The position numbers and the translations under genes were made by a program. 8,128 bases of DNA from a virus (taxonomy: Duplodnaviria; Heunggongvirae; Uroviricota; Caudoviricetes): the IMG/VR virus record IMGVR_UViG_2671180608_000010. The stretch is one strand, 5' to 3'. The notes below the pieces were generated by a model, which made no database searches, was not told the origin of the DNA, and saw nothing but the letters and a program-made list of their open reading frames with translations. This document shows positions 1 through 8,128 of the stretch, piece after piece. Each line of letters begins with the position of its first letter. Within the stretch, counting starts at the first letter, position 1.

Positions 1-243
1 AGATCTGACGGCGGCGCCGCCCTGACAACATCATAGTGTTTAAATGCCATGGTTCTTTCCACCATCTGAAAAATAATTCTTTAAAATACCTGACATGTAA
101 TACAGAAAAAACACAAAACCATACCTTAAATAAAAACCTGATTATCAAGCAGATATGCATGGATAAACTACAAGACGAGATATAAACCACCCTGCATTTA
201 AATAAACAATAAACAACATCAGAAAAATAATTCTGCTCTATGG

Positions 244-270
244 TTTACATTCAAAAATATCATTTATACT
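244..270 (+). promoter_or_regulatory. Candidate sigma70 promoter for the 311..646 ORF (TTTACA, 15-nt spacer, TATACT)
   Basis: Hexamers read directly at 244-249 and 265-270. Spacer is short (15 nt). AGGAA Shine-Dalgarno at 301-305, 5 nt before the ATG at 311. Confidence 0.25.
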
Positions 271-310
271 TTTCAGAACATCACCAGCAAGGCATAAACA
301 AGGAAACTAA

Positions 311-646
311 ATGAAGTGGATTGTGATTGATACAGTTATCCAGCCATCATGCGGAATATCTTTTTCAGTCATATGGAGTAAAATAAAATTAATAATCTGG
401 TATCAATCGGATGCTTTCTTACCTCCTGAAAGTATATTTACACTGACTCACACAGGCATCATGCTCAATAACAAAGTGCTACCTGTAACCATTTACAACG
501 TAGTACCATTCAATAAAACATTCTGGAATTCAATCAAAAATAGCCAGGAATGCCCTACAAATACAGATAACGTATTGAATGAATGCTTTAATAACCGTTG
601 CACTCTGCAAATATGTCCTTATGGACTAAAACAACAAAGTCCATAA
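311..646 (+). CDS. Hypothetical 111-aa protein in an AT-rich moron-like block; C-terminal half has 5 Cys; no recognisable family
   Basis: Uninterrupted 336-nt ORF in AT-rich DNA with a good RBS. Opposite orientation to the prophage late operon. Recognition by eye only, no homology claimed. Confidence 0.3.
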
Positions 647-670
647 GGAGTTTACTCACATCTGACAAAA

Positions 671-702
671 TCAATATAAACAGCCCCTCCGGAGAGGGGC
701 TG
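671..702 (-). terminator. GC-rich hairpin (cagcccctc/cgga/gaggggctg) followed on the minus strand by a U-rich tract; likely intrinsic terminator
   Basis: Perfect 9-bp stem at 681-689/694-702 with 4-nt loop. Minus-strand downstream sequence is UUUAUAUUGAUUUUG. On the plus strand it sits 35 nt after the 311..646 stop but has no U-tract. Confidence 0.4.
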
Positions 703-897
703 GAGAGTGGCGCTATGTGCCATTGCATGGTGCCGGGTGCCTCCCGGTGAATTCAGTACCAGCACCTGAATCCGCGATTATCCCATATACCTACTCGCTG
801 ATTGCCCCTCCGCACAGGGGGATTCACCATGCCAGTTTCTTTTAACAAACTCCCCGCAAAACAGACAACTGTCAACCGTCTGAATTGTGAGACATTT

Positions 898-923
898 AAA
901 AAAAAGGCCCGCAAAAGCGAGCC
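898..923 (-). terminator. Intrinsic terminator immediately downstream of the tRNA cluster
   Basis: Minus-strand hairpin GGCUCGC-UUUU-GCGGGCC (906-923) followed by 8 U (plus-strand A-run 898-905). Confidence 0.5.
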
Positions 924-937
924 AGGGAAAATAAGTG

Positions 938-1014
938 TGGCGCGTTGTACTGGATTCGAACCAGTGACCGATTGCTTAGAAGGCAATTGCTCTGTCCGGC
1001 TGAGCTAACAACGC
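938..1014 (-). tRNA. tRNA-Arg, anticodon UCU (reads AGA/AGG), 77 nt with encoded CCA
   Basis: Cloverleaf folded by hand from the reverse complement: acceptor GCGTTGT/ACAACGC, D-stem GCTC/GAGC, anticodon stem ATTGC/GCAAT with loop CTTCTAA, T-arm ACTGG-TTCGAAT-CCAGT, discriminator G, CCA. Confidence 0.85.
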
Positions 1015-1027
1015 ATGATGCAGATAA

Positions 1028-1104
1028 TGGACCGCCATCGGGGACTTGAACCCCGCGCAGCCAGCTTCGAAGGCTGGCGCTCTTTCCTGATGAGCTAATG
1101 GCGG
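1028..1104 (-). tRNA. tRNA-Arg, anticodon UCG (reads CGA), 77 nt with encoded CCA
   Basis: Hand-folded: acceptor CCGCCAT/ATGGCGG (unusual C1-G72), D-stem GCTC/GAGC, anticodon stem CCAGC/GCTGG with loop CTTCGAA, T-arm CGGGG-TTCAAGT-CCCCG, CCA. Confidence 0.8.
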
Positions 1105-1227
1105 TATGTGATGGTGGCCCTTGCTGGATTTGAACCAGCGACCTGGCGATTATGAGTCGCTCGCTCTCACCACTGAGCTAAAGGGCCGGGAGCCGCATAA
1201 TAACGACGCGTAATTAATTCTTCAATA
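1096..1227 (-). repeat. Direct repeat copy 1 (Arg-UCG 5' end, spacer, tRNA-Ile2, about 35 nt of upstream flank); second copy at 2833..2958
   Basis: Read directly: 1096-1193 matches 2833-2930 except one spacer SNP (tatgtga versus tttgtga). Flanks then diverge gradually. Confidence 0.85.
1112..1187 (-). tRNA. ileZ: tRNA with CAU anticodon, closest by memory to E. coli tRNA-Ile2 (ileX/ileZ type, reads AUA) rather than elongator Met
   Basis: Hand-folded: acceptor GGCCCTT/AAGGGCC, D-arm TAGCTCAGTGGTGAGAGC, anticodon loop CTCATAA, T-arm GCTGG-TTCAAAT-CCAGC, CCA. Ile2 versus Met cannot be settled without a classifier. The ileZ symbol is by analogy to the Stx-phage ileZ-argN-argO cluster. Confidence 0.8.
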
Positions 1228-2103
1228 TCATCCGTTCTGGCTGACTAAATCCTGTACTTCCCGAACCGTCTGCTCAAAACGTTCAGTCTCCAGCTCAACG
1301 CCAATTGCACGACGCCCGAGCGCCAGTGCCGCTTTCACTGTCGAACCCAACCCCATGAAAAAATCTGCAATCAGGTCACCCGGACGACTGCTAGCGCTGA
1401 TTATCTGCTGCAGCATTTCTGCCGGTTTTTCGCACGGATGTTTCCCGGGATAGAACTGCACCGGTTTATGCGTCCACACATCGGTATACGGCACCTGCAC
1501 CGTCACGCCAAAATACCGCCGCAGATGTTTATATTCACTCAGCAGCTCCGCATACTGCCGGTTCAGTGAGGTATACGTATCCACCAGCTGGTGGTGGAGC
1601 TTTTCCAGTTCACCACGCCGATGCTTCTCTTCTGCCACCCGGGCAAACAGCGCCTGTAATTTCAGATAATCGCTTTCATTCGGCAACTGCCACTGACCGG
1701 CACTGAACCAGTGCGACACCATGTTTTTCTTTCCTGTGGCATCTGCAATCTGTTTTGCCGTTATCCCCAGGGCAGCTCGCGCATCACGAAAGTAAGAAAT
1801 CAGCGGGGCCATCACATGCTGTTTCAGTGCACTGCCCTTCGCCGCATACCCGGCATCTTTCGGACGATACGGCCCCTGATAATGTTCCGCGAACAGAATG
1901 CGCTCTGTGGCGGGGAAATACGCCCGCAGGCTTTCCTTGTTGCATCCGTTCCAGCGTCCGGACGGCTTCGCCCAGATAATATGGTTCAGCACACTGAAGC
2001 GTTCACGCATCATGATTTCGATATCAGATGCCAGGCGATGACCACAGAACAGGTAAAGACTTCCGGCAGGTTTCAGCACCCGCCAGAACTGCGCCAGACA
2101 CTG
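1228..2103 (-). CDS. DNA methyltransferase, N6-adenine/N4-cytosine beta class (C-terminal AdoMet motif DFFMGLGST); visible 292-codon 3' portion, 5' end is N-masked
   Basis: Minus ORF ends with TGA at 1228. The motif-I-like FxGxGST near the C-terminus with an upstream target-recognition region matches beta-class architecture, so motif IV (DPPY/F) is expected inside the masked 2104-2613 run. The 1228..2655 track ORF is an artefact of reading through Ns. Confidence 0.8.
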   Translation of the reverse strand, partial: QCLAQFWRVLKPAGSLYLFCGHRLASDIEIMMRERFSVLNHIIWAKPSGRWNGCNKESLRAYFPATERILFAEHYQGPYRPKDAGYAAKGSALKQHVMAPLISYFRDARAALGITAKQIADATGKKNMVSHWFSAGQWQLPNESDYLKLQALFARVAEEKHRRGELEKLHHQLVDTYTSLNRQYAELLSEYKHLRRYFGVTVQVPYTDVWTHKPVQFYPGKHPCEKPAEMLQQIISASSRPGDLIADFFMGLGSTVKAALALGRRAIGVELETERFEQTVREVQDLVSQNG

Positions 2104-2832
2104 NNNNNNNNNNNNNNNNNNNNNNNNNNNNNNNNNNNNNNNNNNNNNNNNNNNNNNNNNNNNNNNNNNNNNNNNNNNNNNNNNNNNNNNNNNNNNNNNN
2201 NNNNNNNNNNNNNNNNNNNNNNNNNNNNNNNNNNNNNNNNNNNNNNNNNNNNNNNNNNNNNNNNNNNNNNNNNNNNNNNNNNNNNNNNNNNNNNNNNNNN
2301 NNNNNNNNNNNNNNNNNNNNNNNNNNNNNNNNNNNNNNNNNNNNNNNNNNNNNNNNNNNNNNNNNNNNNNNNNNNNNNNNNNNNNNNNNNNNNNNNNNNN
2401 NNNNNNNNNNNNNNNNNNNNNNNNNNNNNNNNNNNNNNNNNNNNNNNNNNNNNNNNNNNNNNNNNNNNNNNNNNNNNNNNNNNNNNNNNNNNNNNNNNNN
2501 NNNNNNNNNNNNNNNNNNNNNNNNNNNNNNNNNNNNNNNNNNNNNNNNNNNNNNNNNNNNNNNNNNNNNNNNNNNNNNNNNNNNNNNNNNNNNNNNNNNN
2601 NNNNNNNNNNNNNTTTAGCATGTCTTTTCCTTTTCCGGTTAACGTGACACACCAATAACTCTTGTCGAAAAAGCCAGCAAGCTGAAANNNNNNNNNNNNN
2701 NNNNNNNNNNNNNNNNNNNNNNNNNNNNNNNNNNNNNNNNNNNNNNNNNNNNNNNNNNNNNNNNNNNNNNNNNNNNNNNNNNNNNNNNNNNNNNNNNNNN
2801 NNNNNNNNNNNNNNNNNNNNNNNNNNNNNNNN

Positions 2833-2958
2833 TAATGGCGGTTTGTGATGGTGGCCCTTGCTGGATTTGAACCAGCGACCTGGCGATTATGAGTCGCTCG
2901 CTCTCACCACTGAGCTAAAGGGCCGGGAGCAGAATAATAACGGTCCGTAATTAATTCC
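2833..2958 (-). repeat. Direct repeat copy 2 of the tRNA-containing segment; the rest of the Arg-UCG tRNA lies in the 2688-2832 N-run
   Basis: taatggcggt at 2833-2842 is the 5' portion of the Arg-UCG tRNA as at 1096-1105. Similarity to copy 1 fades after about 2958. Confidence 0.8.
2849..2924 (-). tRNA. ileZ: Second copy of the CAU-anticodon tRNA (Ile2-like), identical to 1112..1187
   Basis: 76-nt sequence identical to copy 1, read directly. Sits 37 nt downstream of the candidate tR' hairpin. Confidence 0.8.
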
Positions 2959-2960
2959 GC

Positions 2961-2985
2961 AATAAAAAACCCGCTCGGCGGCGGG
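2961..2985 (-). terminator. Candidate tR' intrinsic terminator downstream of Q
   Basis: Minus-strand hairpin CCCGC-CGCCGA-GCGGG (2970-2985) followed by UUUUUUAUU (2961-2969). In lambdoid phages Q-modified RNA polymerase reads through tR'. Confidence 0.6.
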
Positions 2986-3034
2986 TTGTAGAAACTCTTC
3001 TAACGTCAGGCATAAAACGCCCATAGTTATGACG

Positions 3035-3062
3035 AATTTACCACAGATTCCGGAAAAATCAA
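3035..3062 (-). promoter_or_regulatory. Candidate late promoter pR' (TTGATT, 16-nt spacer, TAAATT) just downstream of the Q stop
   Basis: Hexamers read on the minus strand at 3062-3057 and 3040-3035. Position matches lambdoid pR'. The Q-binding (qut) element cannot be defined from sequence alone. Confidence 0.4.
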
Positions 3063-3067
3063 CCTTG

Positions 3068-3889
3068 TTACCTAGTTACCTTTTTTAACTGCCGCTCAGC
3101 CCATGCTTCTTCAATATCAAACCGGGTCACCAGCGCATCATAAAATTTCTTAACTGTTTTTTCCCATGACGCGCGTGTTATCTGGTTTGTCACCTCGCAT
3201 ATAGCATTAAATGCCTCCGTTGATGGTAGTCTTTCATAGCCACGACCACCACAACGCTGGCAGTCTCTGATAACAGGCATACCACGTTTTACCGACTCTT
3301 CACGATGAATGGCGACACCACGCCCACGGCAATCCTTACAGGCGGTGGAAACCTCACCCTTTCCGCCACACTCCGGACAGGCAACTTTTACCACCTCCCT
3401 GACTTTTTTCCATTCTTCCCAGTAAGACGGATACACACCTTTCGTACACTTTGCCCATACCGGCGGCTTACCATCCGGATACTGGACCTTGTTTGTAAAA
3501 ACTACGCTTTCAATAAATTTTTCCCCATAGCAACAAGGGCACTGCTTTTTACTCGCTGCGCTGCGGGCATAATCCTCAAAAGCGTACGAAGCCATAATGC
3601 GCATCACTACCGGTTTTATTTCTGCCGGAAGTTTTCTCAACGCCGCCACACGATCGCACCGACTGAGTGCATAATCTGCCAGTAATTCTGTTGCCCGCGC
3701 CCTGTCATTCATACTGATGCCCATTTTCCCCAGGAACGCAGAAAACCCCATCTCAGCCCGATTCTGTGTCATGCCCTGCGCGGCCATCACATCAGTGATA
3801 CTCAGCGCATCTTTTGACGTTGAGGCCGATGCATCGGTCAGGCAAGGGGATTTTGGGGAGTAGTATTTCGGTAAATCTTCCAGTTTCAT
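3068..3889 (-). CDS. Q: Late-gene antitermination protein Q (lambda Q family, long variant with Cys-rich zinc-binding region)
   Basis: 273-aa ORF. N-terminus (MKLEDLPKYYSPKSP...TDVMAAQGM) and C-terminus (YDALV) align by memory with lambda Q; several CxxC pairs. Start ATG overlaps the upstream rusA-type stop (ATGA). Confidence 0.85.
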   Translation of the reverse strand: MKLEDLPKYYSPKSPCLTDASASTSKDALSITDVMAAQGMTQNRAEMGFSAFLGKMGISMNDRARATELLADYALSRCDRVAALRKLPAEIKPVVMRIMASYAFEDYARSAASKKQCPCCYGEKFIESVVFTNKVQYPDGKPPVWAKCTKGVYPSYWEEWKKVREVVKVACPECGGKGEVSTACKDCRGRGVAIHREESVKRGMPVIRDCQRCGGRGYERLPSTEAFNAICEVTNQITRASWEKTVKKFYDALVTRFDIEEAWAERQLKKVTR

Positions 3890-3918
3890 TTTTTGACCTG
3901 CTCTTCATGCATTATGGG
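3838..3918 (-). repeat. Duplicated rusA-3'/Q-5' junction, copy A (partner at 4864..4947)
   Basis: About 80 nt near-identical between the two positions (ttttggggagtagtatttcggtaaatcttccagtttcattttttgacctgc...). Copy A runs into the N-run at 3919. Confidence 0.8.
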
Positions 3919-4412
3919 NNNNNNNNNNNNNNNNNNNNNNNNNNNNNNNNNNNNNNNNNNNNNNNNNNNNNNNNNNNNNNNNNNNNNNNNNNNNNNNNNN
4001 NNNNNNNNNCCACGCGATCACACNNNNNNNNNNNNNNNNNNNNNNNNNNNNNNNNNNNNNNNNNNNNNNNNNNNNNNNNNNNNNNNNNNNNNNNNNNNNN
4101 NNNNNNNNNNNNNNNNNNNNNNNNNNNNNNNNNNNNNNNNNNNNNNNNNNNNNNNNNNNNNNNNNNNNNNNNNNNNNNNNNNNNNNNNNNNNNNNNNNNN
4201 NNNNNNNNNNNNNNNNNNNNNNNNNNNNNNNNNNNNNNNNNNNNNNNNNNNNNNCTTCCGGACAGGCTTAATTTCAGTCGCTGCTGACGGACAATAAGCG
4301 CCACATCCCGGCGATAACGCTCACCGGCTTTTGATACAAAATATGTGTTGTCACGACGTCGCCAGTAAGTATTCACCGTCGGCGGATAAGGTAAAATAAA
4401 CTCATGGCGCAT
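3886..4412 (-). CDS. Second RusA-like resolvase gene, integrity uncertain (interior masked; N- and C-terminal frames disagree if N-run lengths are true)
   Basis: Visible N-terminus MRHEFILPYPPTVNTYWRRRDNTYFVSKAGERYRRDVALIVRQQRLKLSLSG (4412-4255) is about 90% identical to rusA at 4915..5295. Visible 3' end ...PIMHEEQVKK-TGA at 3886 is in a different frame, and the span is 146 nt longer than rusA copy 1. Confidence 0.45.
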
Positions 4413-4669
4413 CAGCGCAGCACCTCCTGCACCAGTTTTTCAAACTTTCCGACTCTGGTTTCCAGCTCTGCCACACAGTCCACCAGCTCATCTACTGCTT
4501 TCTGTGCGCGATGCTTCGCCTGCATCAGTTCCCGAAGCGCGGGTACCATATCTTTACGGATAGCGTCTTTTGTTATGCCCGTTTTTTCGAGTTGTTCAGC
4601 ATGACGCAGCATTTCCTGCGCGTGTTTACGCAATTGTTCAGGGGTAAAAGTCATTGTCTGGTTGTTCAA
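4412..4669 (-). CDS. Hypothetical 85-aa (80 aa from the ATG at 4654) helical protein, translationally coupled to the downstream RusA-like gene
   Basis: Stop TGA overlaps the rusA-like ATG (TGATG). TTG start at 4669 has GGAG 8 nt upstream. Charged coiled-coil-like composition; no family recognised. Confidence 0.55.
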   Translation of the reverse strand: MNNQTMTFTPEQLRKHAQEMLRHAEQLEKTGITKDAIRKDMVPALRELMQAKHRAQKAVDELVDCVAELETRVGKFEKLVQEVLR

Positions 4670-4821
4670 AAGAAACGCTCCATCTTACTGCTGTCAGTTC
4701 GTTTATTACTGTATCTGCGCGGATTGCCGGGCTTCATGGGAGTGGAAAGCACCCGTGCACTTTCCTGGTCCACAGGCAGAAAATGTCCGTAGACTGGCCC
4801 CCTGAATCTCCAGACAACCAG

Positions 4822-4841
4822 TATCACTTAAATAAGTGATA
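4822..4841. repeat. Perfect 8-bp inverted repeat with 4-bp spacer, TATCACTT-AAAT-AAGTGATA; candidate protein-binding site
   Basis: Read directly. TATCAC matches lambda operator half-site consensus. Lies in a non-coding stretch beside the 11-nt N-run. Confidence 0.5.
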
Positions 4842-4863
4842 GTCTTAATACTNNNNNNNNNNN

Positions 4864-4918
4864 CAGTCAGGCCGGGGGATTTTGGGGAGTAGTATTTCGG
4901 TAAATCTTCCAGTTTCAT
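4864..4918 (-). pseudogene. 5' fragment of a Q gene (first 18 codons MKLEDLPKYYSPKSPGLT), then masked and divergent; recombination scar
   Basis: DNA near-identical to the start of Q at 3889-3838. After the N-run the reading frame gives unrelated sequence and stops at 4706. Confidence 0.6.
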
Positions 4919-4947
4919 TTTTTGACCTGCCCTTCAAGCATTATGGG
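4864..4947 (-). repeat. Duplicated rusA-3'/Q-5' junction, copy B
   Basis: Near-identical to 3838-3918, read directly. Confidence 0.8.
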
Positions 4948-5295
4948 ATAAATCTTCACCCCCAGACGTCCACCAGATACTGGCTGAGCACGAACGATAT
5001 TGATTTCATCAAACTGCTCATCGTCCATTAGCAACCCCGCATGCGTCAGCGCATCCAGCGGCGCTTTCAGAATATTGTCCAGGTCACGGCGGCGCTTATC
5101 CGGTGGTTCTGCAATAATTTTTATTGCCAACCTTCCGGACAGGCTTAATTTCAGCCGCTGCTGGCGAACAATAAGCGCCACTGCCCGGCGATAACGCTCC
5201 CCGGCTTTTGATACAAAATATGTGCTGCCACGACGACGCCAGTAAGTGTTCACCGTCGGCGGGTAAGGTAAAACAAATTCTATGCGCTCGGTCAT
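4915..5295 (-). CDS. rusA: Crossover junction endodeoxyribonuclease RusA (Holliday junction resolvase), 126 aa
   Basis: Aligns by memory with E. coli RusA: LPYPPTVNTYWRRR..., PDKRRRDLDNILKA..DALT.AG...DDEQ, GGRL. Start abuts the DUF968 stop (TAAATG). Confidence 0.9.
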   Translation of the reverse strand: MTERIEFVLPYPPTVNTYWRRRGSTYFVSKAGERYRRAVALIVRQQRLKLSLSGRLAIKIIAEPPDKRRRDLDNILKAPLDALTHAGLLMDDEQFDEINIVRAQPVSGGRLGVKIYPIMLEGQVKK

Positions 5296-6354
5296 TTATG
5301 CTTTCCACTTCAGAACACCCGAATTTCTCGCGTGCATTAAAAAACGAATCAGCAACAACAGCTGACTGCCGTGTTTCTCTTCAAAATCTTTTACTCCGGC
5401 ATGTAGTTCGTTACGGCATTTACGGCATAACGGAATAACAAACAAATCATCAGCCTTTGTTCCCATCCCTCCCAGTCCATGACCAATGATGTGATGCGGA
5501 TCATCTGCCTGATTGCCACACGTCATGCATTTCTGCGTTTTTACCCAGCGCGTGTATACAGGCATCTCTTCCCGTTGTGATTTCTGGCGCTGGAGATACT
5601 GAGCCGGTGACTCCGGATCAACGGCAATGCTGACCACCGTCTTTTCCTGTGGTGGGTTCTGTTGCTGGTGGACGTGAGGCAGTAACGCAATATTTTTTGT
5701 GCGCTGCTTCAGTATGCTGGTGGCTGTCTGCTCTCCCGGTATGATGTCGCTTTCACTGTACACAGAGCGAATTTTTTCCGCACGCAACCCCAGCGAACGA
5801 CGTAATACCGCTTCCGGTAGCGCGTCCGCCACCTGATTGCGGACCGCCCACCAGGATAATTCAGCCAGAGATAATTCACGCTCCTGCGTACCGCTTATTG
5901 CGTGACCGATGACGTCAATCATCCATGCTGACAGGTTTTGATGAGCAAGTTGCTCGAGTGATTCGGATGTCTGGTCACGCAGCTGGTTGTCGCAGTGCCA
6001 GCACAACACCATTGCGCCGGTACCATAACGGTGAATGACGGTTTCGCTGTGATGATAATCGCCGTGTGGCCACTGGCAGGATTTAATATGGCGCAACAGC
6101 CAGTCAGACAATGCACCAGCACCACCAGCAGCACGAATCACCCGTGCGTTACTGAAAAACGGCAGCAATGTTTTGTCTTCCACCAGCGGCTGGCGAGCGG
6201 CAGGAACGACCCCGGACGGCAGATTACGCATGCTTTTTGGTTCCGGCTCCACCAGTATTCTGCCGTTATGGAATGCTGACATTGATTCACGGCCTGGCTT
6301 AACGATAACCAGACCGAGTTCCGGTACCAGAACAGGTCGAAGTAATACCCGCAC
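5296..6354 (-). CDS. DUF968-family prophage protein with C-terminal HNH-like Cys/His motif (YdfU-like), 352 aa from a GTG start
   Basis: C-terminal CMTCGNQADDPHHIIGHGLGGMGTKADDLFVIPLCRKCRNELH matches the DUF968 signature. GGAGG lies 4 nt upstream of the GTG; true start could be the ATG 24 codons in. Confidence 0.8.
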   Translation of the reverse strand: MRVLLRPVLVPELGLVIVKPGRESMSAFHNGRILVEPEPKSMRNLPSGVVPAARQPLVEDKTLLPFFSNARVIRAAGGAGALSDWLLRHIKSCQWPHGDYHHSETVIHRYGTGAMVLCWHCDNQLRDQTSESLEQLAHQNLSAWMIDVIGHAISGTQERELSLAELSWWAVRNQVADALPEAVLRRSLGLRAEKIRSVYSESDIIPGEQTATSILKQRTKNIALLPHVHQQQNPPQEKTVVSIAVDPESPAQYLQRQKSQREEMPVYTRWVKTQKCMTCGNQADDPHHIIGHGLGGMGTKADDLFVIPLCRKCRNELHAGVKDFEEKHGSQLLLLIRFLMHARNSGVLKWKA

Positions 6355-6429
6355 ATTACCTCCAGATCCGTTGCTGGAATGTGCGGGACGGACGCGTTGG
6401 CCGTTCGGAGTAAGGGAGCCTGACGGAGA

Positions 6430-6711
6430 TTATCCAGTGACGGTAGTCGAGGCTAAGGGCTTTTTTAACCTCGCATCCGCGCCTGCGGTAACACTGAATG
6501 AGCCATTCGGCCTGTTCTTCAGTGCATGGGGGATGCTGGTACCAATCAGATTTAAATGCGTGAGAGCGCCGCCCGTGCCTGCTGGCAAAGACGGCTGAAT
6601 TATCAGAATTGTGTAGTCTGGAAGGCAGTGGCTGACAATAGCGCCATTCTCAACGCGCACAGTATAGAGGCCATCTTCACTAAAAATTTCACGTAATTCT
6701 TCGATTTTCAT
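6430..6711 (-). CDS. Hypothetical 93-aa protein (MKIEELREIFSEDGLYTVRVENG...), in the position rem occupies in Qin-type prophages
   Basis: ORF with GGAAGGA about 8 nt upstream of the ATG at 6711. Sequence equivalence to Rem is not claimed. Confidence 0.5.
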   Translation of the reverse strand: MKIEELREIFSEDGLYTVRVENGAIVSHCLPDYTILIIQPSLPAGTGGALTHLNLIGTSIPHALKNRPNGSFSVTAGADARLKKPLASTTVTG

Positions 6712-6793
6712 CAACAGAATCCTTCCAGATAAATAGCACTCCCCTGTTCGGGGTCCATCCCTCTTCTCCCTGCGCGCTACTTAAGTATTTTTG

Positions 6794-6824
6794 ATTCTAT
6801 TCCGGCACCATCTAAAACTTCAAA
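6794..6824 (-). promoter_or_regulatory. Candidate sigma70 promoter (TTGAAG, 18-nt spacer, TAGAAT) for the 6430..6711 gene
   Basis: Hexamers read on the minus strand directly after the hok terminator. Confidence 0.3.
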
Positions 6825-6830
6825 CGCGTT

Positions 6831-6861
6831 GAAAATAAAAACAAAAACCCGCCGAAGCGGG
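6831..6861 (-). terminator. Intrinsic terminator of the hok transcript
   Basis: Minus-strand hairpin CCCGC-UUCG-GCGGG (6848-6861) followed by UUUUUGUUUUUAUUUUC. Confidence 0.65.
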
Positions 6862-6931
6862 TTAAGTGTGGGTGCATTGAGGATGCCTGACCCATCAGAG
6901 GTGGCGAGGGATTTCTCCCCCGCCTGGTCTC

Positions 6932-7087
6932 TTACTCCTCAGGTTCGTAAGCTGTGAAGACAGCGACCTCCGTCTGGCCGGTTCGAATTCGTACCTCGCA
7001 GAGGTCTTTCCTCGTTACCAGTGCCGTCACAATGACGGTTAAACAGATGACGATCAGGGCGATTAACATCGCCTTTTGCTGCTTCAT
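6932..7087 (-). CDS. hokD: Hok/Gef-family membrane toxin, 51 aa (HokD/RelF-like)
   Basis: MKQQKAMLIALIVICLTVIVTALVTRKDLCEVRIRTGQTEVAVFTAYEPEE matches the Hok family from memory. AAGGAG 9 nt upstream. The 70-aa track ORF is an in-frame upstream ATG extension. Confidence 0.85.
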   Translation of the reverse strand: MKQQKAMLIALIVICLTVIVTALVTRKDLCEVRIRTGQTEVAVFTAYEPEE

Positions 7088-7298
7088 AGCCTGCTTCTCC
7101 TTGCCTTTCGGCACGTAAGAGGCTAACCTAGATTTGCCGTTCATAGATTGAGCCTCAGATTAATGTTAAGCGTCTTGCCGGACGCGTAATGTTAACTGGG
7201 GCTTTTCTCTATCTGCCTTTTGGTGTTCATGCCTGAGACAGATAGCCTCAAGCACCCGCTGCAATTCTACTTAACTCTCCTTTTCCCGCAAACCGTTT

Positions 7299-7382
7299 TT
7301 ATCCCCAGCGGCAAATCGAATACACCACCAGCGCCACCGCCATCGCAATTCCTACCGTTGTTAATGCTTCAGGCCAGGTCAT
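7299..7382 (-). CDS. Candidate 27-aa hydrophobic peptide [27 protein letters not shown], start overlapping the ORF-C stop (ATGA)
   Basis: Translated by hand; not in the ORF track (too short). One predicted transmembrane segment. AGGA precedes an internal ATG. Could be a non-translated leader. Confidence 0.3.
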
Positions 7383-7723
7383 CGTAAAATATCCTCCACG
7401 CTTATCAGTCCGTTCCGCTCCAGATAACTCATCGCCTTATCCGGTAATTTGCAGTCTGGCTTCGCTTTCCTCAGTTGCCAGGTTAACTGCTTTACCAGCA
7501 TGGTTAACTCATCGACCAGACGCTGATATCCCACTGGTTTGTATTCATGCAATTTACCGGCTGGCTCTGCTGCCAGCGATACCAGTGCGATTTCCAGAAC
7601 AGCAATATCCATCTTATATGTGCGGATGATGTCATGGTCGATTGTGCCCGGTATGCACAGTCTCTGTGCTTCAATAGTCTCCTCTGCGTGAGCTATTAAC
7701 TGCTCTCTGGTAAAAGTCGTCAT
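7379..7723 (-). CDS. Hypothetical 114-aa protein ORF-C; N-terminal domain paralogous to ORF-B
   Basis: ORF whose ATG overlaps the ORF-B stop (ATGA). Shares MTT(I/F)T(K/R)E and M(E/D)(L/I)A..(I)AL.SL.AEP motifs with ORF-B. No family recognised. Confidence 0.6.
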
Positions 7724-7887
7724 GCCGTAGCCCCTTCTTGATATTTTTCAAACCAGAACACAACCGGCTCTGCTTCCAGCGATGCCAGCGCAATCCGTGC
7801 CAGTTCCATTTGTTCACCACGGGTAAGCCCGTTTTCAAGCGGGTTTTTAATGAACAATTCAATACGTTCTTTGGTAATAGTGGTCAT
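7720..7887 (-). CDS. Hypothetical 55-aa protein ORF-B ([55 protein letters not shown]), absent from the ORF track
   Basis: Translated by hand. Perfect AGGAG 6 nt upstream of the ATG, immediately after the ORF-A stop. Stop overlaps the ORF-C start. Confidence 0.5.
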
Positions 7888-7897
7888 GTGTTACTCC

Positions 7898-8128
7898 TTA
7901 ACCCGCAGTGCTTTCAACTGATGAGGGGAACAAAATCTTTTCATCAAACCCTGCATTCATATCATGAACAGCAACACACCAATCCATCGACGAACGATTA
8001 TCAAGAGCCTCCATGATTTCATCCATGCGGCGTAGGTCATACAGGTAAATGCTTTTATCGCCAATGGTGTAAAAGCCAATTTTTTTCGGTGATGGATGAG
8101 GTGTACTGGCAATAGCGGACACTACCAT
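7898..8128 (-). CDS. Hypothetical protein ORF-A, at least 76 aa, possibly truncated by the window edge
   Basis: ORF ending TAA at 7898-7900, directly followed by the ORF-B RBS. An ATG sits exactly at the window edge, so the true N-terminus is unknown. No family recognised. Confidence 0.4.
   Translation of the reverse strand: MVVSAIASTPHPSPKKIGFYTIGDKSIYLYDLRRMDEIMEALDNRSSMDWCVAVHDMNAGFDEKILFPSSVESTAG

Follow-up and report, generated by a model that had tools for sequence, protein, structure and literature searches.

A second ileZ gene beside the DNA methylase of a lambdoid E. coli prophage: a join of two common prophage layouts or an assembly mis-join

Gene content of the late-regulatory region

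The window, by which we mean the whole 8,128-nt stretch of viral DNA analyzed (IMG/VR record IMGVR_UViG_2671180608_000010), is the late-regulatory region, on the reverse strand, of a stx-negative, decaying or defective lambdoid E. coli prophage. Its elements are ordered IraM, STnc100, argO, argN, ileZ copy A (ileZ-A), DNA methylase, hyp65, a run of 145 N, ileZ copy B (ileZ-B), the terminator tR', and the antiterminator gene Q (Table 1). Four tRNA genes were called by ARAGORN, all on the minus strand: Arg-UCU, Arg-UCG, and two with a CAU anticodon. ARAGORN labels the CAU tRNA as Met by its anticodon, whereas RefSeq annotates the identical gene as tRNA-Ile; the acceptor stem presumably has C4 and C5, like that of E. 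coli ileX. A CAU tRNA of Ile2 identity is lysidine-modified and reads AUA.

Table 1. Features of the window, with their positions, strand, and supporting evidence or remarks
Feature	Position	Strand	Evidence or remark
Intrinsic-terminator-like hairpin and T run, directly 3' of argO, closing the tRNA operon	906-923	-	
argO, tRNA-Arg (UCU)	938-1014	-	ARAGORN; Rfam, 70.1 bits; 100% identical in most relatives
argN, tRNA-Arg (UCG), intact copy	1028-1104	-	ARAGORN; Rfam, 58 bits
Direct repeat, copy A (argN 5' 9 nt, 7-nt spacer, ileZ, ~40 nt of upstream promoter flank)	1096-1227		
ileZ-A, tRNA-Ile2 (CAU)	1112-1187	-	ARAGORN; Rfam, 72.5 bits; identical gene is tRNA-Ile in RefSeq
Putative sigma-70-like promoter, TTGAAG-17-TATTAT, 10 nt upstream of ileZ-A	1197-1225	-	Consensus match only
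N6/N4 DNA methyltransferase, visible C-terminal two thirds (N-terminus under N)	1228-2103	-	100% identical to 10 IMG/VR loci
N run; in relatives, methylase N-terminus, intergenic stretch, and 65-aa gene hyp65	2104-2613		Comparison with relatives
First 8 nt of hyp65 and upstream region (Q-proximal end of the cassette)	2614-2687	-	100% identical to L001, L039, and other loci
N run over the junction of the cassette upstream end with the ileZ-B block; probably contains the dead argN' remnant	2688-2832		Junction unreadable
Direct repeat, copy B	2833-2964		Positions 2833-3142 100% identical to L004 and L095
ileZ-B, 76/76 identical to copy A	2849-2924	-	ARAGORN; Rfam, 72.5 bits
tR'-like terminator following Q, 43 nt upstream of ileZ-B	2968-2987	-	
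Switch of closest parent within this interval, methylase-less type (L004) to methylase type (L039)	3032-3142		SNPs at 3025, 3031, 3143, and 3677
Antiterminator Q	3068-3889	-	PF03589, 6.2e-55

At copy A (positions 938-1187), the CAU, UCG, and UCU genes follow one another in that order on the strand of the late transcript, downstream of Q and tR', as they do in Stx2a phage L003. An earlier, sequence-only reading had recognized here the ileZ-argN-argO cluster that lies downstream of Q in lambdoid and Stx phages, and this identification holds. The genes, their order, and their spacing downstream of Q and tR' match those of lambdoid phages, Stx-converting ones among them (933W type; e.g., Stx2a phage Stx2_EH1910, LC567834), and argO and ileZ are 100% identical to their counterparts in that cluster. 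The order in Stx2a phage LC567834 is Q-hyp-methylase-tRNA(CAU)-Arg-Arg-stx2AB, and two tRNA-Arg genes and one tRNA-Met gene have been reported to adjoin stx2a (PMC7946995). The window differs from the Stx phages in lacking stx, in having the STnc100 sRNA and IraM fill the slot after argO, and in carrying one extra ileZ upstream of the methylase. The name argN is used in GenBank records; a full-text search for ileZ, argN, and argO returned no match in the library searched. Across nine genes of the prophage, AUA, AGA, and AGG account for 12.1, 5.6, and 4.6 of every 1000 codons, approximately 2-4 times the E. coli average.

Extent of the repeat

The two repeat copies are in direct orientation and 94% identical over their full length (1096-1227 versus 2833-2964), with the methylase gene and N runs between them. 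The sequence-only reading had described this as a duplicated tRNA cluster whose copies differ by one SNP. A repeat that brackets the methylase and the N positions is indeed present, but a single difference (at 1106/2843) applies to 98 nt only (1096-1193 and 2833-2930); over 126 nt there are seven mismatches (1106, 1194, 1196, 1206-1208, and 1221), and uninterrupted identity extends over 87 nt at most. The promoter-like site upstream of ileZ explains why part of the flank is retained in copy B.

ileZ is present twice. What can be seen of a second, Q-proximal cluster is ileZ-B and the first 9 nt of argN, not a complete set. Before the visible sequence upstream of hyp65 resumes at position 2687, there is room at copy B for at most argN and 64 nt of argO, and a second complete argO is excluded because the space is too short. 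The demonstrable duplication thus covers one tRNA gene (ileZ), not the cluster.

The methylase cassette

The full-length homolog of the methylase in L001 matched PF01555 at 2.3e-44 (152.4 bits, cut-off 26.7), and this relative also matched PHROG DNA methyltransferase families; the 876 nt visible in the window are 100% identical to IMG/VR relatives. A PF01555 methylase is common to the window and to the widespread Q - hyp65 - DNA methylase - tRNAs layout seen both in Stx2a phages and in prophages of E. coli (L001, which is strain TOE17; L039 and L042 in IMG/VR), and window positions 678-2103, 2614-2687, and 2962-3918 are 99.8%-100% identical to L039. The difference lies between the region upstream of hyp65 and tR', which are separated by 52 nt in relatives with the methylase layout and by 145 N plus a 126-nt ileZ-B block in the window.

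It had been proposed that the cassette arrived by homologous recombination between tRNA genes. Comparison with prophages lacking the methylase, which had been suggested as a check, speaks against this: L065 (without the cassette) and L001 (with it) differ by an indel of 1.53 kb that is clean, with ...GCAAT on one side and AAAAAACCCGC on the other, and no tRNA is duplicated. In other genomes, the indel (~1.5 kb) likewise lies between the ileZ promoter and tR'. A proven ileZ upstream of the cassette was found neither in the fetched cassette-bearing loci nor in the best-ranked of 631 complete genomes carrying the module. Recombination between tRNA genes is thus not required for the arrival of the cassette: the indel is clean and leaves no tRNA duplicated. 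From these alignments, the cassette is best described as an ordinary moron-like indel that did not arrive through the tRNA repeat. The likeness to phage morons (a tRNA operon with its own promoter-like site and terminator, and a cassette that is cleanly present or absent) is a functional analogy only.

Provenance of copy B

The layout that copy B resembles is the methylase-less one, Q - tR' - ileZ - degenerate argN', as in phage vB_EcoS-640R1 (ON470612) and E. coli FDAARGOS_944, with which copy B shares its promoter flank and the T variant of the spacer. After ileZ, these relatives have argN', in some cases an argO remnant, and then STnc100 and IraM; a methylase cassette was found at that position in none of them. 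Copy B carries the T spacer variant and a promoter flank differing from that of copy A, and is continuous with tR'-Q. Window positions 2833-3142 are 100% identical to the methylase-less loci L004 and L095, and from position 3032 on the sequence matches the methylase-type loci L039, L046, and L060. By these markers, copy B comes from a different lineage than copy A, and the window is, in terms of its closest matches, a mosaic that combines the layout Q-tR'-hyp65-methylase-ileZ-argN-argO with the layout Q-tR'-ileZ-(degenerate argN), both of them abundant.

The spacer variant also bears on the gene hidden beneath the adjoining N run. Among fetched loci, the T variant was accompanied by a dead argN' in 14/14 and the A variant by an intact-type argN in 45/45. 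A sequence-pattern scan of IMG/VR found the T spacer with a dead-type argN 5' end in at least 120 contigs and with an intact-type 5' end in one, which itself is without an intact argN. Neither ARAGORN nor Rfam, the latter even at E ≤1, called the remnant argN' as a tRNA. Because the spacer variant of copy B is linked to dead argN, it is unlikely that copy B brings another working Arg tRNA. In nature, ileZ is found with each of the four possible flank pairs (intact argN or dead argN' on the left, methylase or tR'-Q on the right). Recombination at ileZ is therefore frequent, and these flank combinations mark ileZ and its promoter flank as a real, recurrent crossover point.

Distribution of the arrangement

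Each constituent layout is common. The methylase type (at least 80% of window positions 1-2103 covered) was found in 631 complete genomes and the methylase-less layout (at least 80% coverage) in 1,060, including L065 with intact tRNAs; both can occur within one genome, e.g., NZ_CP033762.1. The exact arrangement of the window was absent from 5,426 complete E. coli genomes, INPHARED phages, IMG/VR, GTDB representative genomes, and JGI metagenomes. A gapped exact scan (hyp65-upstream region, 130-160 nt, ileZ-B) gave 0 matches in IMG/VR, GTDB representatives, and JGI metagenomes, and a BLAST search built to join both junction flanks yielded no record among complete E. coli genomes. Exact scanning for the copy A flank gave 0 matches in GTDB representatives and 49 loci in IMG/VR, none with the architecture of the window. 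The IS/Q(b) junction pattern had 0 matches, as did a 131-nt SNP-mosaic pattern in IMG/VR and metagenomes. For positions 2833-3918, the top complete-genome match was 99.8% rather than 100%. Look-ups of the exact Q and RusA proteins returned standard contexts only, and are uninformative, as each protein occurs in >7,500 blocks of the collection.

Two sets of candidates were rejected. One match covering 84% of positions 2833-8128 was an artefact of joining by the search, and L032, L033, and L058, considered as natural multi-ileZ loci, have a single N at every module joint.

Origin of the arrangement

The layout reflects either the joining of two prophage layouts that are both very common or a mis-join in assembly or scaffolding, and not a new mechanism. 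We are about evenly inclined toward a rare scar of recombination between prophages. The starting point would be a standard module (Q - tR' - hyp65 - DNA methylase - [promoter-ileZ-argN-argO-terminator]) into which an extra patch of 200-345 nt from a Q - tR' - promoter - ileZ - degenerate argN' module was inserted directly after tR', most likely through recombination between two co-resident prophages. One end of the patch would have formed where both parents share the tR'/Q 3' region, by homologous crossover between positions 3032 and 3142, and the other by an illegitimate join that now lies beneath N. No homology of ≥12 nt was found between the left, N-covered junction side of copy B and the upstream end of the cassette; that junction therefore did not form by homologous exchange between tRNA genes. 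The points that weigh against a recombinant origin are that the decisive junction is beneath N, that the left junction lacks homology, and that the arrangement was seen nowhere else. The parent switch is marked by four SNPs only, and a chimeric assembly path would give the same pattern. Two other N runs differ in length from those of near-identical relatives, and one contains a misplaced 14-mer of a Q allele, which likewise counts against recombination.

A wrong join of methylase-less (ileZ-B, tR') and methylase-bearing contigs or paths, in a genome with two or three near-identical lambdoid prophages, is a serious possibility, although we lean away from it; in that case the ileZ genes are not truly 1.7 kb apart. 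Similarity among lambdoid prophages is reported to defeat draft assemblies (PMC4587872), and the window resembles such cases in its near-identical modules per genome, contig ends in IS and Q repeats, and N at joints. Both window-specific junctions (2688-2832 and 4853-4863) are under N, the SNP switch falls inside a 111-nt stretch common to both parents, and the arrangement occurs in no closed genome. N runs deviate in length from relatives (510 positions at 2104-2613 versus 523 nt in 9/9; 336 positions at 3919-4254 versus 184 nt in 7/7), which may reflect real indels if the N are length-preserving masks. At 4010-4023, where RusA is expected, stands a 14-nt island that belongs to the other Q allele, and visible sequence ends 63 nt into a multi-copy IS3-family element (4790-4852), a typical contig-end site. 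The only other multi-ileZ loci, the three rejected above, share 100%-identical segments with the window and are concatenated contigs joined exactly at the single N. Against a mis-join, the N runs may be masks rather than source gaps, as the 14-nt and 74-nt islands suit random masking better than scaffolding. Moreover, a repeat-induced error normally changes parent within the repeat and does not usually leave two copies around unique sequence, and a scaffolder would not estimate 145 N if the true distance were 52 nt.

Two further explanations place the tRNA genes at the center. On the sequence-only reading, two phages recombined homologously at their tRNA genes, which brought in the cassette and duplicated the head of the cluster (ileZ and a second functional Arg-UCG tRNA). 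The direct orientation of the repeat, its inclusion of the argN 5' end, and the demonstrable shuffling of ileZ flanks between module types fit this proposal, which we nonetheless consider very unlikely: the clean cassette indel comes without duplication in the fetched cassette-bearing loci and the best-ranked of the 631 complete genomes, and a single crossover within ileZ exchanges flanks and does not duplicate the gene. In addition, copy B runs seamlessly into tR'-Q, so that there is no junction on that side, its other junction is without homology, and its T spacer variant predicts a dead argN'. Least probable of all is an ancestral arrangement in which the cassette first lay within the tRNA cluster with ileZ on either side, the single-ileZ layout arising later by loss of the Q-proximal copy. 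This would address the 52 nt that separate tR' from the region upstream of hyp65 in the standard layout and are otherwise unexplained, but these 52 nt resemble neither ileZ nor argN' nor the sequence around them, no further example occurs in any collection searched, and the cassette in the window is 100% identical to that of single-ileZ relatives, which indicates that the window is not an old lineage.

Potential consequences

If the arrangement arose by recombination between prophages, both ileZ copies would lie in the Q-antiterminated late transcript, and copy B would contribute no more than an extra dose of the tRNA that decodes AUA and very probably no second functional Arg tRNA. The direct repeats (87 nt perfect, 98 nt with one mismatch) are long enough for RecA or Red recombination, which needs roughly 25-50 nt. 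Loop-out via the 87-nt perfect stretch is plausible from repeat length and orientation, and RecA or phage Red could in this way delete the 1.7-kb methylase segment and restore the widespread methylase-less layout. The layout resembling such a loop-out product reached a best identity of 98.5% in four genomes; this layout is widespread (the 1,060 genomes noted above) and exists independently, and it cannot be shown to derive from the window. It is very unlikely that the arrangement is real and the 98-nt ileZ repeat a built-in switch, from which RecA or Red deletes the methylase cassette appreciably often or through which the cassette is regained from a sister prophage. Were this true, a lysogen population would be mixed for the phage DNA methylase, amounting to recombinational on/off control of an epigenetic or anti-restriction function.

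The arrangement of the window itself matters little. If real, it is one more case of module shuffling among co-resident lambdoid prophages, with one mildly interesting consequence, a methylase cassette placed between 87-98-nt direct repeats. Duplications in lambdoid late regions of unfinished assemblies call for their junctions to be read before interpretation. More useful are two by-products of the comparison: the recurrent crossover point formed by ileZ and its promoter flank, and a widespread remnant of dead argN that one SNP in the spacer identifies.

Layout of the window and the repeated ileZ gene

The components of the window are all known and ordinary (Table), and its sole oddity is an extra, Q-proximal copy of the tRNA-Ile2 (CAU) gene ileZ, which leaves the methylase cassette (hyp65, encoding 65 aa, and a DNA methylase) flanked by a repeat. 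STnc100 and IraM stand where Stx2a phages such as LC567834 (L003) carry stx2AB, which fills the slot between argO and iraM; the window is thus an stx-negative relative of the Stx2a phage layout.

Table. Features of the window, ordered as phage late transcription runs (minus strand)
Feature	Coordinates	Strand	Remarks
RusA	3912-4412	-	
Antiterminator Q	3068-3889	-	PF03589, E = 6.2e-55
tR'-like terminator	2987-2968	-	
ileZ copy B	2924-2849	-	
argN 5' end	N at 2832-2688	-	9 nt visible, then 145 N
hyp65 upstream region and its first 8 nt	2687-2614	-	74 nt; assigned from relatives
N run	2613-2104		510 positions
N6/N4 DNA methyltransferase	2103-1228	-	C-terminal two thirds visible; full-length relative: 152 bits, PF01555
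Sigma-70-like promoter	1225-1197	-	
ileZ copy A	1187-1112	-	
argN (Arg-UCG)	1104-1028	-	
argO (Arg-UCU)	1014-938	-	
Terminator after tRNA genes	923-906	-	
STnc100 sRNA	861-672	-	Rfam, 133.6 bits
Anti-adapter IraM	311-646	+	Annotated so in relatives

The direct repeat spans 132 nt (1096-1227 versus 2833-2964; 94% identity), with a longest perfect run of 87 nt. The two ileZ copies match at all 76 positions (72.5 bits each against the Rfam tRNA model). Their partly conserved flank corresponds to the ileZ promoter region, where both copies share the -10 element TATTAT but differ at -35 (TTGAAG in A, TTGCGG in B). A sequence-only reading had described a duplicated tRNA cluster differing by one SNP. 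The single difference (1106/2843) holds for the first 98 nt, but seven mismatches occur over the 126 nt considered, and "cluster" overstates the case, as duplication is evident for one tRNA gene only and no second Arg tRNA is visible. Visible cassette sequence restarts at 2687, leaving space for argN and at most 64 nt of argO.

Elsewhere in the window, a hok/sok type I toxin-antitoxin locus was identified (7082-7257 and 6932-7144), in which a sok RNA (Rfam, 112.4 bits) overlaps a hok-like ORF of 70 aa; the corresponding position in relatives carries the annotation HOK_GEF. RusA and the Q 5' end occur twice, at 90-95% identity (3837-3918 versus 4866-4947; 4255-4410 versus 5132-5287). The second Q allele, Q(b) (4864-4918), breaks off after ~55 nt. 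IMG/VR locus L042 matches the window at 100% identity from 4864 on; in that locus, a complete Q(b) precedes the same methylase cassette.

The methylase cassette is a clean indel among relatives

Two layouts are very common in relatives. In type II, Q and tR' are followed by 52 nt, hyp65, methylase, ileZ, argN and argO, as in strain TOE17 (L001), Stx2a phage LC567834 and IMG/VR loci L039 and L042. L039 is 99.8-100% identical to window positions 678-2103, 2614-2687 and 2962-3918, and window positions 1-2103 were covered at ≥80% by 631 complete genomes. In type I, ileZ directly follows Q and tR', without the cassette, accompanied by intact argN and argO (L065) or by a degenerate argN' (phage ON470612, L002; strain FDAARGOS_944, L004). 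A synthetic methylase-less sequence was covered at ≥80% by 1,060 genomes.

Comparison of L001 (5628-7155) with L065 (2925-2930) showed the cassette to be a clean presence/absence indel of ~1.53 kb, bounded by the ileZ promoter (...TTC(C/T)GCAAT) and tR' (AAAAAACCCGC), with an AT dinucleotide common to both ends and no tRNA duplication. Recombination between tRNA genes is therefore not required for the presence of the cassette, and the earlier proposal that it arrived by this route is unsupported.

Copy B carries a spacer allele linked to an argN pseudo-tRNA

Window positions 2833-3142 are 100% identical to type I loci L004 and L095, and the spacer beside ileZ copy B carries the T allele (GGCGGTTTGTGA). 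Among fetched loci, all 14 with spacer T had the degenerate argN', and all 45 with spacer A had an intact-type argN. In IMG/VR, at least 120 contigs combined the T spacer with the dead-type argN 5' end (GATAAGC), and one, itself without an intact argN, combined it with the intact-type end (GATGAGC). argN' was not called as a tRNA by ARAGORN, nor detected by the Rfam tRNA model even at E ≤ 1. This linkage and lack of recognition suggest that the masked 145 nt most likely hold a pseudo-tRNA and no second functional Arg-UCG gene.

The T-for-A spacer SNP tags argN', a widespread pseudo-tRNA that keeps both ends and has lost the anticodon arm (L002, 2494-2573; L004, 3960-4010). In L004, an additional deletion took out argO, apparently at CAACAACC microhomology.

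Recombinant or mis-join

The window arrangement was not found in 5,426 complete E. coli genomes (top coverage 52%, i.e., one side only), among INPHARED phages, in 184 fetched loci or in exact gapped scans of IMG/VR, GTDB representatives and JGI metagenomes; its SNP mosaic was likewise unmatched in the sequences searched. The only other loci with several ileZ genes (two or three) were L032, L033 and L058, which were ruled out as natural examples: they are short contigs concatenated with a single N at every module joint (L032, 2490; L033, 2232 and 6087; L058, 2769 and 6012), which proves that the modules reside together in a genome but not that they are adjacent. Both module types also occur together within single closed genomes (e.g., NZ_CP033762.1).

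SNPs across 2833-3918 place a switch of parent between 3032 and 3142, since window alleles match type I (L004) at 3025 and 3031 and type II (L039, L046, L060) at 3143 and 3677. Compared with L039, the window has a type I patch in place of the 52-nt segment; the patch consists of tR', the ileZ promoter, ileZ copy B and the start of argN'. On the right, the patch ends within sequence common to both parents; on the left, its end is hidden under N. The type II segment lying upstream of hyp65 has no homology of ≥12 nt to what follows ileZ in type I, which rules out a homologous crossover at the left end. All four pairings of ileZ left and right flanks exist (L001; L065; L004; L015/L051/L064), making ileZ a genuine recombination hotspot, although a crossover inside ileZ exchanges flanks without producing a second copy.

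The extra ileZ has two candidate origins, a rare scar of recombination and a mis-join. We hold the chances that the arrangement is a real recombinant to be about even, and regard an assembly artefact as a serious possibility, if not a probable one. N runs cover both of the junctions specific to the window (2688-2832 and 4853-4863), and spacing departs from that of relatives: the N run at 2104-2613 has 510 positions against 523 nt in nine of nine relatives (13 fewer between the same anchors), and the stretch 3919-4254 has 336 against 184 nt in seven of seven (152 more). Within the latter, a 14-nt island between two N runs (4010-4023, CCACGCGATCACAC) corresponds to Q(b) allele positions 231-244, not RusA (17 of 17 matches there). 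Moreover, visible sequence ahead of the 11-N run ends 63 nt into a multi-copy IS3-family element (4790-4852), which we take to be IS2. Homology to the IS-free relative L004 stops at its left end (4790), and in L039 and L033 the element runs on into a transposase ORF starting MIDVLGPEKRRRR..., whereas in the window the 63 nt are followed by 11 N and the truncated Q(b). Similarity among lambdoid prophages has also been reported to defeat draft assemblies (PMC4587872). If, as the wording of the sequence-only reading implies, the N runs are masks, however, they are uninformative on contiguity, and the tiny islands suit random masking better than scaffolding. The length differences would then be genuine indels, in a prophage with many scars, in which RusA and the Q 5' end are duplicated and Q(b) is truncated beside an IS end.

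Potential function of the tRNA genes and the repeat

With its own promoter-like site and terminator, the tRNA operon would also lie within the Q-dependent late transcript. Codon use in nine prophage genes was 12.1 (AUA), 5.6 (AGA), 4.6 (AGG) but only 1.9 (CGA) per 1,000, the first three being roughly 2-4 times E. coli averages. AUA, AGA and AGG use is consistent with the usual rare-codon rationale for phage tRNAs (PMC7946995). The most that a second identical ileZ would do is increase the dose of AUA-decoding tRNA. The direct repeat is longer than the shortest homology on which RecA or Red can act, which would make loop-out of the 1.7-kb segment through it mechanistically plausible; the product would resemble the common type I layout.
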